From positions 1 through 64,000 of the IMG/VR virus record IMGVR_UViG_3300011008_000009: DNA of 64,000 nt; one strand, given 5' to 3'. Under the pieces are notes generated by a model. That model was not told the origin of the DNA, did not search any database, and worked only from the letters and a program-made list of their open reading frames with translations. The position numbers and the translations under genes were made by a program. Source of the DNA: a virus. Below, in pieces: positions 1 to 36,017 of the stretch (position 1 is its first letter; each line of letters opens with the position of its first letter).

Positions 1-246
1 ACAAAATTTTCGCGCCGAAACTGTACATAATCACCACAAATGTAATCGTTATTATGTAATCGTTTACACCGGCGCCGAATTTTAATATACTAAAGCGCCG
101 AAGCGTTGGACCTGGATCTGCTTTATGCTTTAAACCATTAAAGTCCGACGTCGAACTTTCATACACTAAAGTGTTAAGGGGCCGATCCGGGAATTTATGC
201 ACCAAAACGTGAACAAAAAATTTTTTAAAAAATTTTTAAAAACCTA

Positions 247-275
247 TTGACAAATGACCCGAAATGTGCTATAAT
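247..275 (+). promoter_or_regulatory. sigma70/sigmaA-type promoter of paralog cassette A
   Basis: TTGACA 247-252, 17-nt spacer, TGcTATAAT (TATAAT 270-275). Phased A/T tracts at 215-246 upstream. AGGAGG at 292-297 precedes ATG 306. Confidence 0.8.
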
Positions 276-305
276 GTATATAGTAAAGGACAGGAGGACG
301 CGAAA

Positions 306-863
306 ATGAAAAAATGGAAATACGAAAACGAAATCAAGAACGCCACAGCAACACTCTTGAAAGCATATCTCGACACGATGCACAGCAAGACCATTGCAGT
401 AGTTTTCACAAATGAAAACGATGTTTACTACTATGACCTTACCGAAAATGATTTGACAGACCTTGCAAGAGTAAACAACGAAAAATTAATGACACAGTCA
501 CTCACGAAAAAAAGACTTGCAAAGTACCTTGAAAACGCTATCAAGTTCGCCACAATAAACGACATAGACGAAATCAAGAGAAACTTTCCGAGATACGCAA
601 ACAACAACGGATATATCGCGGAATTTGTTTACAGATACAAAAAGACAAATGAAACGATAGAAGAAATCAAAAAATCAAACAAATCAATCGCCTACGACCT
701 CGAAAGTGATACAAGAGATAACAAACAGATAAAAGAAATCACGAACGGCGCGACATTTACAACATTCGCCTACATATTGAAAGTAGCGAGAGAAAAGAAA
801 ATAGACTACTTAAACGAAATCGAAAACGCGGTAAATACACTCACAAAAATATACAGTGAGTAA
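306..863 (+). CDS. Hypothetical protein, left-end paralog A (185 aa)
   Basis: The track ORF 264-863 starts inside the -10 box. ATG 306 has a good SD. About 50% identical to the ORF at 2053-2601 (MKKWK..LL.AYL.TMHS, NNGYI.EF.YR, YD..SDT.DNKQIK, ATFTT). Own promoter and terminator. No family recognised. Confidence 0.8.
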   Translation: MKKWKYENEIKNATATLLKAYLDTMHSKTIAVVFTNENDVYYYDLTENDLTDLARVNNEKLMTQSLTKKRLAKYLENAIKFATINDIDEIKRNFPRYANNNGYIAEFVYRYKKTNETIEEIKKSNKSIAYDLESDTRDNKQIKEITNGATFTTFAYILKVAREKKIDYLNEIENAVNTLTKIYSE

Positions 864-867
864 AGGA

Positions 868-895
868 GTGTGGAACAGAAATGTTCCACATTTTC
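868..895 (+). terminator. Intrinsic terminator of cassette A
   Basis: Stem TGTGGAACA (869-877) / TGTTCCACA (882-890) followed by TTTT. Same hairpin sequence as the one after paralog B. Confidence 0.75.
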
Positions 896-1107
896 GCGCT
901 GATCTGTTTTGTGCTTTAATGTGTGAAAGTTCGACGTCGAATTATAACGCTTTAAACCACTAAAGCGCCGGACCTAGATCCGCCTCGACATTTTAAAGCA
1001 CTAAAGCGCCGGACATTGACATAGCGCACAGCCCGACTATTGCCGACCAGAGCGCTGTATTTTATTTAGTTTTGTTAATTACTCTTCATAGTTCGGGTCT
1101 GTGATAT

Positions 1108-1317
1108 TCAGCACAAACCGTCGTCAAATTCCAGTTTGCCATAGCCGTAGCTTAAATCAGCTTTCACAGCGTACTTTCTCAGCATATCCACGATGGTGCA
1201 TTCGTCTTCGGTGTAGTAGTTCATCGAGATAGTGTAGGTGTCCTCGCTCTCGTTGAGTTCGCCCGTGATGTCCGCGAGTTCGAGCATTCTTACGATAAGT
1301 CTTGCATTTGTAGTCAT
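1108..1317 (-). CDS. Small acidic hypothetical protein (69 aa)
   Basis: ORF with about 14 D/E versus 6 K/R. Driven by a near-consensus promoter at 1371-1399. The SD is weak. G+C and codon style are richer than the surrounding spacer. Confidence 0.55.
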   Translation of the reverse strand: MTTNARLIVRMLELADITGELNESEDTYTISMNYYTEDECTIVDMLRKYAVKADLSYGYGKLEFDDGLC

Positions 1318-1344
1318 ATTTTTGTACTCACTGATATATATTTT

Positions 1345-1363
1345 GTGAACTCTCTCTGTTCAC
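1345..1363 (-). promoter_or_regulatory. Inverted repeat in the 5' leader of the acidic ORF (operator or RNA hairpin)
   Basis: GTGAAC-TCTCTCT-GTTCAC lies between the -10 box and the start codon. Confidence 0.45.
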
Positions 1364-1370
1364 TGATAAC

Positions 1371-1399
1371 AGTATAACACATATCCAAACAGAAGTCAA
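1371..1399 (-). promoter_or_regulatory. sigma70/sigmaA-type promoter (leftward)
   Basis: On the minus strand: TTGACT (1399-1394), 17 nt, TATACT (1376-1371). Confidence 0.7.
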
Positions 1400-1582
1400 T
1401 AGATTTTGAAAAGTTTTTTTAATTCGTATAATATGCACAAATGCATAGATATATATGTGATTTTATTGTACATTATGCATATAAAAACGTTACAATTCGA
1501 TTGTTTTGATGTTTTGAAAATGTTTTAGATTGTTAAAAGTTTAACAGATTTGAGTTAGTCTATGCTAACTGAAACGATAAAA

Positions 1583-1910
1583 TGTAATCGATTACATATA
1601 TATTTGTCAAATATGCATAGTGATGTTTAGTAATAATGCACAATAAAACGTGTAATCGATTACATTATCAACGTGTAAACGATTACATTGTGAAATTTTT
1701 AACACTCACGATCTTGACTTGTTAAAATTTTAATGATCCTGCGCTTTAAATGATTAAAGCAAATAATTAGTTTGACAAACTAATTAAATCGTTAAACTTT
1801 TAACAAATGAATTTATTGATTAGTTTGTCAAACTAATTAAATTGTTAAAAGTTTAACAAATACGTCTGTAATTAGTTTGACAAACTAATCAAAACGTGTA
1901 AACGATTACA
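1583..1910. repeat. 14-bp palindrome family TGTAA(T/A)CGATTACA (operator-like)
   Basis: Perfect TGTAATCGATTACA at 1583-1596 and 1651-1664. TGTAAACGATTACA at 1674-1687 and 1897-1910, both inside the shared string AACGTGTAAACGATTACATTG. The inverted form TGTAATCGTTTACA is at 55-68 and a half-site at 41-48. Confidence 0.8.
1766..1889. repeat. Three 19-bp palindromes ATTAGTTTG(A/T)CAAACTAAT in about 52-53-bp tandem units
   Basis: Copies at 1766-1784, 1819-1837 and 1871-1889. The intervening sequence is also repeated: GTTAAACTTTTAAC at 1791-1804, and its inverse GTTAAAAGTTTAAC at 1844-1857 and 1532-1545. A degenerate copy is at 2723-2741. Confidence 0.85.
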
Positions 1911-1993
1911 TTGTTAAAGTTTTCACAAGCAGATCCATTTTGTACAATATGCACAAATTTTCTGAAAATATGCACAAATGTGAAAAAAACCTA

Positions 1994-2022
1994 TTGATTT
2001 TTCTCTTTTTTAGGTGTATAAT
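1994..2022 (+). promoter_or_regulatory. sigma70/sigmaA-type promoter of paralog cassette B
   Basis: TTGATT 1994-1999, 17 nt, TATAAT 2017-2022. Shares the AAAAACCTATTGA context with the promoter at 247. ATATGCACAAAT repeats lie just upstream (1946-1977). Confidence 0.75.
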
Positions 2023-2052
2023 AAAGAAAAACAAGGAAGGAAGTACCGAAAA

Positions 2053-2601
2053 ATGAAAAAATGGAAATTTGAAAAGGAAATAACCGAAAGCACAAAAACA
2101 CTCTTGACTGCATACCTTGCAACTATGCATAGTGTTGCTATCACTGCAATATTCACCTACAATGATAATGTTTATGCTTACGACTTAACCGAAAGCGATA
2201 CAAACGAATTGGCAACAGTGACCGCCGAAAAAATACAGATTAATTCATTAGGAAAAAAGAGAATTGAAAAAATTCTCAATAAGTCGGAAAAATTCGCAAC
2301 AGTTGAACAACTTGAAAAAATCCGTGAATACTTCCCTAAATACAACAACGGTTATATTTCAGAATTTGCATACAGAATAATTAAAAACGGCGAAAGCATA
2401 GAAAATATTAAACACTCAAACAATTCAAAAGGTTACGACATTTCAAGCGATACAAAAGACAACAAACAGATTAAAAACCTTGATAATAAAGCGACTTTCA
2501 CAACATACGATTATTTAATAAAAGCCTGCAACAGAAAAGGTTATAAAGATATTGAAAAGGTAATAAATGCAATAGCAACGCTAAAAGAAATATACAACTA
2601 A
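2053..2601 (+). CDS. Hypothetical protein, left-end paralog B (182 aa)
   Basis: Paralog of 306-863. The track ORF 2014 begins in the promoter. ATG 2053 gives the conserved MKKWK N-terminus. Confidence 0.8.
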   Translation: MKKWKFEKEITESTKTLLTAYLATMHSVAITAIFTYNDNVYAYDLTESDTNELATVTAEKIQINSLGKKRIEKILNKSEKFATVEQLEKIREYFPKYNNGYISEFAYRIIKNGESIENIKHSNNSKGYDISSDTKDNKQIKNLDNKATFTTYDYLIKACNRKGYKDIEKVINAIATLKEIYN

Positions 2602-2609
2602 ACGAAAAG

Positions 2610-2643
2610 GTGTGGAACAGAAAATGTTCCACACTTCTTTTTT
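2610..2643 (+). terminator. Intrinsic terminator of cassette B
   Basis: Stem GTGTGGAACA (2610-2619) / TGTTCCACAC (2625-2634) followed by TTCTTTTTT. Confidence 0.85.
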
Positions 2644-2984
2644 AAATTAATTAATTATAAATACTAACTAAATCAACACGCCAAAATATACTATTTGTAT
2701 ATTAAACTTTTTTGTTAAGTGTATTAGTTAGACAAACTAACTATCAAATCCGAGCTGACAAAATTTTAACAATCCTGGGACTAGCTGACTTGTTAAAACT
2801 TTCACAAACCGCGGCATCATAATAATTAATTAGGGGCGCTAAATTCGCAGGACTCAGGCCCAGGCTTAGCTAATACCTAGCGTGGGGGTAGGTTTTAGGA
2901 ATTTTTCACTTTAATGCGCTAAAGTGGGGCGGGCCTGCAACATACCACGACCGAAATTAAAATCCATCCTCTACCCTCCAATAT

Positions 2985-3013
2985 TTGACATTTTCCCAAT
3001 TTTATGCTATACT
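2985..3013 (+). promoter_or_regulatory. sigma70/sigmaA-type promoter ahead of the rightward gene block
   Basis: TTGACA 2985-2990, 17 nt, TGcTATACT (TATACT 3008-3013). Confidence 0.7.
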
Positions 3014-3052
3014 ATAATTAGATTAAAATTTTGGAGGTTAAATTATCTAACT

Positions 3053-4246
3053 ATGATCAAACTCGATTTCAGTCTACAATCTGAACAACAAAGATTAGAC
3101 TATATAAATCAATACGACCTCTCAAAACTTTCCCAATCTCAAATAGAACTCTGTGCAAATTACATACTTTATGGAAAAGATAAAACCGGTAAATCCGAAG
3201 TCGATAAAAAACACATTTATATAAATACGAAATATGATAGTTATAAAACCAAACGTCCAGAGTCACTAGATGCATTGATTGATACTGGAAGTTTTGACGA
3301 GGTAATAATACCTAAGTATGACCAGCACTATAAGACCGTTAAACCTACTATAGATAGGGTGAAGGACGCTGATATTCCCACGATGAAAGAAGTGTGGGAG
3401 GGAATAGATTACTTGCAACATATATTGGATGTGAATTTAGGGAAGGCGGAGCCGGACCCCGGTGAGAACGTTCCAAAATTAACTCCCACCGAATTATATA
3501 AGTGGCAACATATGGTGATAGACGTTAGGCGCAATCAGTACTACCTCAAAGATATATTCAAGCCAACTATAAATAAGTATTTCAATAAACTCAACTACAT
3601 CCCCTACCACGATGCCAACGAAGCCGACTGGAACGACCCTAATTCAGACTACGGATTCGCGCCCTTAGGTCTAATCAATGATTTTGGGGTGGGTAAGCTG
3701 GTATTTAGCGGCGCCACCAATTATGAGGTAAGAACGCCGTTGTATAATGAAAATGCGCGTCATATAGTGGACTTCCGCAATCCTAAACATGTATATAGTT
3801 TAATGGACTATTATGAAGAGTTAGCTACCGCCGCCCTAGATAACCCAACTAGCCTTATGGGGCTGATAGTGAGGACGTTAGACTATTATATTGATAGAGC
3901 GAATTTGAAGGATCAGCATTATACTATTATTGAAATGAAGAAGTTACATAAAAAGAATAAGGAGATTAATGAAAAATTAACCGAATTATATGGATTACAT
4001 CATACCGAAAATTACATTAGTACGATATGGACACATAAGGTGTGTACCGAAATTGCCGCAGCCGCACAATTACACTATGATGAGTTTTTAAGACGAAACG
4101 ATGAAAGTGCTTGGAAGGTTTGCTGTACGTGCGGGCGCCGTTTACTAAGAGACAGCAGAATGTTTGTGAAGAAGAATAAGGCGAAGGACGGATTGAGTGG
4201 TAGATGCAAGATGTGCGATAGAGTAGAGAGAATGCGCAGGAGATGA
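3053..4246 (+). CDS. Hypothetical protein with C-terminal zinc ribbon (397 aa)
   Basis: The track ORF 2924 runs through the promoter. The first ATG after it is 3053, but GGAGG lies 15 nt upstream, so the start is uncertain. C-terminus: CCTCG..F..K..DG....CKMC. No family recognised. Confidence 0.6.
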   Translation: MIKLDFSLQSEQQRLDYINQYDLSKLSQSQIELCANYILYGKDKTGKSEVDKKHIYINTKYDSYKTKRPESLDALIDTGSFDEVIIPKYDQHYKTVKPTIDRVKDADIPTMKEVWEGIDYLQHILDVNLGKAEPDPGENVPKLTPTELYKWQHMVIDVRRNQYYLKDIFKPTINKYFNKLNYIPYHDANEADWNDPNSDYGFAPLGLINDFGVGKLVFSGATNYEVRTPLYNENARHIVDFRNPKHVYSLMDYYEELATAALDNPTSLMGLIVRTLDYYIDRANLKDQHYTIIEMKKLHKKNKEINEKLTELYGLHHTENYISTIWTHKVCTEIAAAAQLHYDEFLRRNDESAWKVCCTCGRRLLRDSRMFVKKNKAKDGLSGRCKMCDRVERMRRR

Positions 4247-35988: not shown

Positions 35989-36017
35989 ATTATATCATAA
36001 TATTTAGAAAAAGTCAA
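35989..36017 (-). promoter_or_regulatory. sigmaA-type promoter (TTGACT-17-TGaTATAAT)
   Basis: Minus strand: TTGACT 36017-36012, 17 nt, TATAAT 35994-35989 with TGa. Confidence 0.75.

Follow-up and report, generated by a model that had tools for sequence, protein, structure and literature searches.

Paired single-gene cassettes encode an orphan protein family conserved in a clade of large rumen and gut phages

Near the start of a 64,000-nucleotide stretch of viral DNA (the window; the first 64 kb of the 138,578-bp IMG/VR virus record IMGVR_UViG_3300011008_000009), two rightward genes encode proteins of 185 and 182 amino acids that are related to each other and to few other sequences. Copy A (306–863, plus strand; protein P0001) and copy B (2053–2601, plus strand; P0002) are identical at 94 of 183 positions over their full length (51%; BLASTP E = 3e-61), far beyond chance and close to the 50% given in the initial annotation of this DNA. 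A profile of the family matched only these two copies in the whole genome, and we regard them as real paralogous genes. The record carries a 99-bp terminal repeat, which indicates a circular assembly. Both genes lie at the point of divergence between a leftward block of early genes and a rightward packaging and structural block.

Inspection of the signals around each copy shows a stand-alone cassette with a predicted sigma-70/sigma-A-type promoter, a Shine–Dalgarno (SD) sequence, an open reading frame (ORF) and an intrinsic terminator. The promoter of copy A (247–275, plus strand) has TTGACA at 247–252, a 17-nt spacer and TGcTATAAT at 267–275, followed by GTATATAGTAAAGGA; it matches the consensus at 12 of 12 positions, has an extended −10 element, belongs to the same class as the leftward early promoters and is conserved in relatives. 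The promoter of copy B (1994–2022, plus strand) consists of TTGATT (1994–1999), 17 nt and TATAAT (2017–2022), with two ATATGCACAAAT motifs upstream, but it matches at only 10 of 12 positions and lacks the TG of an extended −10. Each copy thus has its own promoter, as had been proposed, although that of copy B is weaker than had been implied. The AAAAACCTATTGA context that the promoters were said to share was borne out, and three further promoters of the genome have it too. From their class alone, we infer early transcription by the host RNA polymerase as infection begins.

The downstream signals follow a similar pattern. Good SD sequences had been described for both genes; that of copy A is AGGAGGA (292–298, plus strand; read from the sequence and conserved in A orthologues), with a GGAGG core that ends 8 nt upstream of the ATG, whereas that of copy B, AAGGAAGGAAG, is weaker. 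The terminator hairpin of copy A (865–894, plus strand) reads GTGTGGAACA-GAAA-TGTTCCACAT, with a G-U last pair, followed by UUUU, and is identical in A orthologues. That of copy B (2608–2646, plus strand) reads GTGTGGAACA-GAAAA-TGTTCCACAC, followed by the T-run CUUCUUUUUU; a different hairpin is found in the relatives L001 and L005. RNA folding gave −18.6 kcal/mol (z = −4.5) for the terminator of copy A and −18.4 kcal/mol (z = −5.3) for that of copy B. The two genes therefore end in the same hairpin (GTGTGGAACA-loop-TGTTCCACA(T/C) and a U-run), and alignment of the promoters and terminators of the copies upheld the view that the whole promoter–gene–terminator unit is duplicated.

Several public assemblies contain 199-amino-acid products (P0003–P0005 and P0009) that correspond to a start of copy A at ATG 264. 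We rejected this start, as the ATG falls inside the −10 box, and consider 306 to be the true start because the predicted N-terminal sequence MKKWK is conserved in all family members. The excess of C-ending codons reported for copy A over copy B is real yet modest (32% versus 23%, compared with 27% in the neighbouring early genes and 13% in late genes).

Two motifs are shared by the copies: GYIAEF at residues 102–107 of copy A (GYISEF at 100–105 of copy B) and, further on, YDLESDTRDNKQIK at 130–143 of copy A (YDISSDTKDNKQIK at 128–141 of copy B), with the pattern YD(L/I)(E/S)SDTxDNKQIK. Both had been noticed before, with a gap of about 25 residues that is in fact 22. The family is small: clustering at 90% identity leaves 25–30 clusters in a collection of 5.8 billion sequences, and a set of 1.84 billion proteins yielded nine representatives at the 50% level, including one spurious repeat protein. 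Its members have no Pfam domain and no source name beyond ‘hypothetical protein’. The isoelectric point (pI) is 7.6–8.9. Down to 20–27% identity, the only invariant residues are Y21, G102, E106, Y109, E116, D135, Q141 and K143; F94, N100, R110, I121 and A149 are nearly invariant. Fixed differences between A and B (residues 55–71, 114, 126, 128, 144, 145 and 148) adjoin the invariant residues.

AlphaFold2 produced confident models of both proteins, with a predicted local distance difference test (pLDDT) score of 92.5 and a predicted template modelling (pTM) score of 0.87 for copy A, and 95.9 and 0.89 for copy B. The elements follow the same order in each (helix, two strands, helix, two strands, helix, strand, helix, two helices, long loop, beta-hairpin and two helices), so that the protein is predicted to be a compact alpha/beta globule with the same topology in both copies. 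In the models, G102, E106 and Y109 lie on one helix face, E116 starts the next helix, Q141 and K143 alternate on the first strand of the hairpin, and D135 is in the preceding loop.

The initial annotation had called the family unrecognized and had proposed structure prediction with a fold search as a check; both were carried out, and profile, solved-structure and fold searches agree with it. Foldseek searches of the two models against the PDB (350,542 chains) and BFVD found nothing (best E 0.03–0.5, probability ≤0.09, template modelling (TM) score ≤0.29). A weak recurring theme of ASKHA/Hsp70/actin subdomains and ribosomal uL18 (probability ≤0.08, TM about 0.1) was not taken as homology. We found no family-wide match in Pfam, PHROG, NCBIfam or PADLOC with either single proteins or whole alignments, and none in sequence and profile searches of the PDB. 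Sub-threshold matches to BOP1NT, XLF, Thg1 and Cmr5 (the last in 3 of 26 members) were scattered and were rejected as compositional. The family is a sequence orphan and, judging from the predicted structures, apparently a fold orphan as well.

We compared the region in the relatives in which it is assembled (L001–L005, L008–L010, L012 and L017–L019), setting aside the distant members P0030, P0032 and P0033, which are on short contigs. All of these relatives carry the family gene in one or two copies at a fixed position just upstream of the packaging module. Orthologues of copy A are 88–95% identical. For the second-slot copy, identity is 92% in L001–L005, 67% in L012 and 46% in L010, where it forms a third lineage in the tree. 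Among the single-copy relatives, the gene of L008 and L009 is 61% identical to copy A and that of L017–L019 (P0029) is 45% identical; these genes are placed identically, have a promoter of the same type and a terminator of their own, and the cassette layout is the same even in the distant L017. Relatives differ in the small leftward gene that separates the copies, which is unrelated in each, and the terminator of copy B and its downstream spacer have been replaced in L001 and L005.

The ratio of non-synonymous to synonymous substitution rates (dN/dS) is 0.05–0.12 among close orthologues of both copies (0.10 for copy B in L001–L005), 0.2 between the paralogs and 0.05–0.22 over all comparisons, which shows strong purifying selection as estimated from these alignments. 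Positive diversification, which had been suggested as a pressure behind the duplication, was not seen. Given the orthologue identities, the variation in the second slot and the dN/dS values, the family is a conserved gene of the clade, with the second copy as a facultative and exchangeable addition. Because the gene is present in every relative examined, the family behaves as a conserved gene rather than as an accessory anti-defence gene. Searches of IMG/VR, GTDB genomes, JGI metagenome contigs and INPHARED phages found no further relatives.

In L003 (5100–5420), the stop codon of copy B is replaced and the frame runs into unrelated sequence, and in L005 (10556–10621) the stop codon of copy A is changed from TAA to CAA, extending the product to 206 amino acids by 21 codons that run through the terminator. 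On L012 (8560–9707; ENA ERZ1667814 scaffold_2496), some 230 bp beyond the copy in the second slot, the guanine–cytosine (GC) content changes abruptly from 25% to 53%, and the GC-richer DNA carries coding sequence for the C-terminal portion of an FtsZ-like protein and for a 120-amino-acid membrane protein. We considered whether this switch marks a prophage end; a chimeric contig is more likely, because the phage lacks recombinases of the serine and tyrosine types and the family was not found in any GTDB genome.

The relatives come from bovine or rumen metagenome assemblies, on contigs of up to 99.9, 139 and 143 kb. Matches to YonG_N, YonD_N and YonB, together with a comparison of the large terminase (TerL; 44% identity with its counterpart in Geobacillus virus E3 and 35–41% with those of other large Firmicutes siphoviruses), identify the phage as SPbeta/E3-like. 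The clade is narrow and consists of large (about 100–143 kb) SPbeta/Geobacillus-E3-like siphoviruses from rumen and gut metagenomes. Its members share a layout in which a leftward array of small, widely spaced genes is followed by the rightward family gene or genes, a 395–400-amino-acid Zn-ribbon protein, a YonG_N protein, the large terminase, the portal, and YonD_N and YonB proteins. Assignment of the Zn-ribbon protein, encoded by the 397-amino-acid gene downstream of copy B, as a ‘sigma factor’ came from PHROG 5767 alone (E = 1.9e-18), was unconfirmed by Pfam, NCBIfam and the PDB, and was not adopted. A search of the phage for a serine or tyrosine recombinase (integrase) and of GTDB genomes for a carrier of the family found neither, and a virulent lifestyle is therefore likely. 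GC skew tracks gene orientation and did not locate an origin.

The form of the cassettes is not peculiar to this pair. A scan of the whole genome for TTGACA-16..18-TATAAT with at most one mismatch returned 53 matches, about 45 of which share a spacer pattern, an extended −10 element and a conserved downstream ATATAnAGTAAAGGA. These promoters, with TTGAC(A/T), the spacer TTTTnnnAAAAnnTATGn, TATAAT and the conserved downstream sequence ATATATAGTAAA, are located almost exclusively in non-structural regions; examples on the minus strand of the window are at 36017, 45535, 54376, 54904, 57330 and 61977. A conserved spacer and initial transcribed sequence are unusual for plain sigma-70 promoters, and the group may constitute a phage-specific regulatory class.

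Moreover, every spacer of the leftward early block (genome positions 129,900–138,479, which precede the window on the other side of the circular junction) is built as one composite module, which is also found at 1–300 and 890–1060 of the window. It comprises, in order, a GC-rich terminator hairpin, a palindromic element of about 60 nt (CTTTAA..CGGACGTCG..TTAAAG), CGGCGCC, a TTTGTGCAAT(A/T)TTAC box just upstream of the −35, the promoter and a conserved leader, ATAnnTACAGTAAAGGAAAGG. The TTTGTGCAA box is nearly confined to the early block (7 of 9 genome copies), and the elements of the module recur in relatives. Cassette A is bounded by the same intergenic module as all early genes of the phage. 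A second duplicated single-gene cassette occurs outside the window on the minus strand (genome positions 131624–131989 and 134370–134732) and encodes proteins of 121 and 120 amino acids that are 84% identical and have a Lys/Ala/Glu-rich tail. Duplication of an entire expression unit had been read as a sign of dosage or diversification pressure; because promoter and terminator modules repeat throughout the early region, a self-contained unit is the rule here and does not point to any special pressure.

The early block also encodes a candidate DnaQ/Rv2179c-like 3′–5′ exonuclease (249 amino acids; weak Pfam match) and a HAD-like protein with the motif MFDMDGT (153 amino acids), within genome positions 132451–133200 and 133558–134019 on the minus strand.

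The sequences around and between the copies are rich in repeats. Palindromic elements centred on CGACGTCG (CTTTAA..GACGTC..TTAAAG) flank cassette A on its left (126–171) and right (914–959) and together form a 46-nt inverted repeat of 83% identity; almost all spacers of the leftward early block contain the same element. Between the copies lies a 69-amino-acid acidic ORF (1108–1317, minus strand), in a slot that holds unrelated small genes in relatives. It is followed by an AT-rich, palindrome-dense spacer of about 700 bp (1320–1990; 25% GC) that contains ATTAGTTTGACAAACTAAT, GTAAwCGATTAC, TTGTTAAAAGTTTAACAA and ATATGCACAAAT, in three palindrome families with a phasing of 52–53 bp. Among the single-copy relatives, L017 and L019 have none of these palindromes, and L008 lacks types I and III and has only four copies of type II, upstream of the gene. 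Downstream of copy B, the spacer at 2640–3050, which leads to the 397-amino-acid gene, is unrelated in sequence to that of L001 and L005 save for the last 100 bp or so: those relatives have two direct TGTGGAACA repeats, and the window has a GC-rich segment (2810–2960) bearing GCGCTAAA motifs. The contigs of several relatives (for example, L002 and L004) end in this spacer. Rfam and tRNA scans of positions 1–3300 returned only chance miRNA-like matches on the palindromes.

The reading that we favour, with a probability of roughly 0.45, is that the two copies are real, independently transcribed paralogs of an orphan, conserved early gene, that they encode an enzyme-like protein, and that they were duplicated by module-mediated recombination. 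The protein would be made by the host RNA polymerase at the start of infection, and the duplication would have arisen by recombination between the repeated promoter and terminator modules, by analogy with the promoter-early stem-loop (PeSL) cassettes of T4-type phages. The invariant residues are polar, acid-rich and placed on neighbouring elements of the structure, which makes an enzyme the most likely identity of the protein; in the models, the helix face of residues 102, 106 and 109, the start of the next helix, the loop and the alternating strand positions look like a catalytic or metal-binding pocket. Our best guess at the chemistry is a reaction that depends on a divalent metal, either cleavage or transfer, at a phosphoester in a nucleic acid or nucleotide. 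Retention of this core alongside fixed differences (114, 126, 128, 144, 145 and 148) and a different promoter architecture suggests two isoforms that may differ in substrate or partner preference and in regulation. Some considerations weigh against the proposal of an enzyme. It is drawn from the pattern of conservation alone; fold and profile searches matched the protein to no known catalytic fold or motif family, which is why the chemistry is only a guess; and a conserved early gene could equally encode a non-catalytic binder.

Such a binder might be an early effector of host takeover or counter-defence that binds and inhibits a host protein or sequesters a small signalling molecule, with two copies for different target variants. 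This fits the early-type promoters and the position of the genes beside a block of small early ORFs without known relatives (ORFans), which resembles the host-takeover module of phage SPO1, an early-gene cluster with strong sigma-A promoters. It would also account for the strong variation of the second copy among close relatives (92%, 67% and 46% identity), and an orphan fold is common to many phage effectors. We nevertheless consider an effector somewhat unlikely: the family is in every relative examined and has a low dN/dS, whereas genes for counter-defence tend to be accessory and to evolve fast; Glu, Asp and Lys are prominent among the invariant residues, as is more typical of catalytic proteins; and no solved anti-defence protein was matched in the PDB, with PADLOC returning only the spurious Cmr5 match. 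A function as DNA-binding regulators or origin-binding proteins that act on the palindromes between and around the genes seems distinctly improbable. The density and phasing of the palindromes in the inter-copy spacer, the two ATATGCACAAAT motifs that precede the promoter of copy B and the recurrence of the shared terminator stem TGTGGAACA as direct repeats downstream of copy B in L001 and L005 would all suit such a role. However, single-copy relatives keep the gene without these palindromes, which weakens the idea; a search for a helix-turn-helix or other DNA-binding fold or profile found none, the pI is only 7.6–8.9 and the invariant residues are mostly acidic.

A more specific proposal, implied by the initial annotation in its comparison with an E...D...(E/Q)xK nuclease core, is that the proteins are divergent PD-(D/E)XK (restriction-endonuclease-fold) nucleases with a metal site formed by E106, D135 and Q141-x-K143. 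The choice of residues stood up well, as these four are all among the only eight that are invariant across the family, and the models place the Glu on a helix and the Gln and Lys at alternate positions of a strand; E...D...QxK variants of the PD-(D/E)XK motif exist, for example in TnsA. The fold did not: among the 350,542 PDB chains searched with both high-scoring models there was no nuclease (best E 0.48–0.51, best probability 0.08, TM ≤0.29), BFVD gave nothing, no PDDEXK Pfam profile matched any of 19 members even at E ≤10, and PDB profile searches were equally negative. In addition, D135 is in a coil or loop, not at the start of a strand and with no strand before it, only five residues ahead of QxK, and the C-terminal half offers just a two-strand hairpin, with no three-strand meander around the motif. 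We therefore regard a nuclease of this type as improbable. That the ORFs are non-functional, as chance frames or decaying duplicates, could draw on the lost stop codon of copy A in L005 and its 21-codon run-on, but is effectively refuted by the low dN/dS in all comparisons and by full-length conservation down to 20–27% identity, to which the confident models and the conserved SD sites and start codons can be added.

More tentatively, and with greater doubt than attaches to the enzyme-like paralogs described above, the family may represent a new enzyme fold with an undescribed constellation (Tyr, Gly-x3-Glu-x2-Tyr, Glu, Asp and Gln-x-Lys), needed at the start of infection by a clade of large rumen Firmicutes phages and duplicated by cassette shuffling, an instance of PeSL-like plasticity outside the T4 superfamily. 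An enzyme with an unmatched fold would add a catalytic family and provide a handle on the early programme of abundant, uncultured large rumen phages. As the family is narrow, its present value is mainly that of a well-defined target for structure determination and biochemistry.

The cassettes can be set beside several known systems. Morons (Hendrix and colleagues) are autonomous promoter–gene–terminator units in phage genomes; they are inserted as accessory genes, mostly into late operons of temperate phages, with expression from the prophage. The cassettes resemble them in that one gene is enclosed by a sigma-70 promoter and a factor-independent terminator of its own, and in a second copy that is present or absent among relatives. 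They differ in that the family is in every relative at a fixed position, with only the second copy facultative, and in that the phage has no integrase. With the SPO1 host-takeover module (PMC6873191), they have in common a dense set of small early genes, each under strong promoters of the host type, near one end of the genome of a large Firmicutes phage, but none of the SPO1 proteins of solved structure resembles the family in sequence or fold.

The closest parallel is with the PeSL cassettes, which mediate modular shuffling of ORFans in T4-type phages (Arbiol et al. 2010, PMC2839356; Comeau et al. 2014, PMC4122927). In both systems, strong sigma-70-like early promoters and stem-loop terminators are repeated between small ORFans, and the gene content between modules differs among close relatives; the duplication and replacement of single-gene units probably has a parallel here as well. 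A composite motif of the PeSL type, with a promoter and a stem-loop between genes, is evident here from the 53 promoter matches, its occurrence in every early spacer and the folded terminators, and the changes among relatives that may correspond to insertions, deletions and replacements bounded by the modules include a copy number of one or two, an unrelated gene between the copies and a swapped terminator and spacer of copy B in some. By contrast, the phage is a Firmicutes-type SPbeta/E3-like siphovirus and not a T4-like myovirus with hyperplastic regions; its module is longer, adding the palindromic element of about 60 nt centred on CGACGTCG, CGGCGCC and the TTTGTGCAAT box; mini-circles are a feature of PeSLs; and the cargo gene, rather than being dispensable, is kept by all relatives. 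Because of the SPbeta/E3-like affiliation of the phage, the cassettes are an analogue of the PeSL system and not a member of it. The promoter- and terminator-module shuffling of T4-type phages thus probably has a counterpart in SPbeta/E3-like siphoviruses, which would help to account for the diversification of their early regions. Duplication of the cassette is a lineage-specific case of a known form of phage genome plasticity, and the protein that it carries belongs to a novel, narrowly distributed family.

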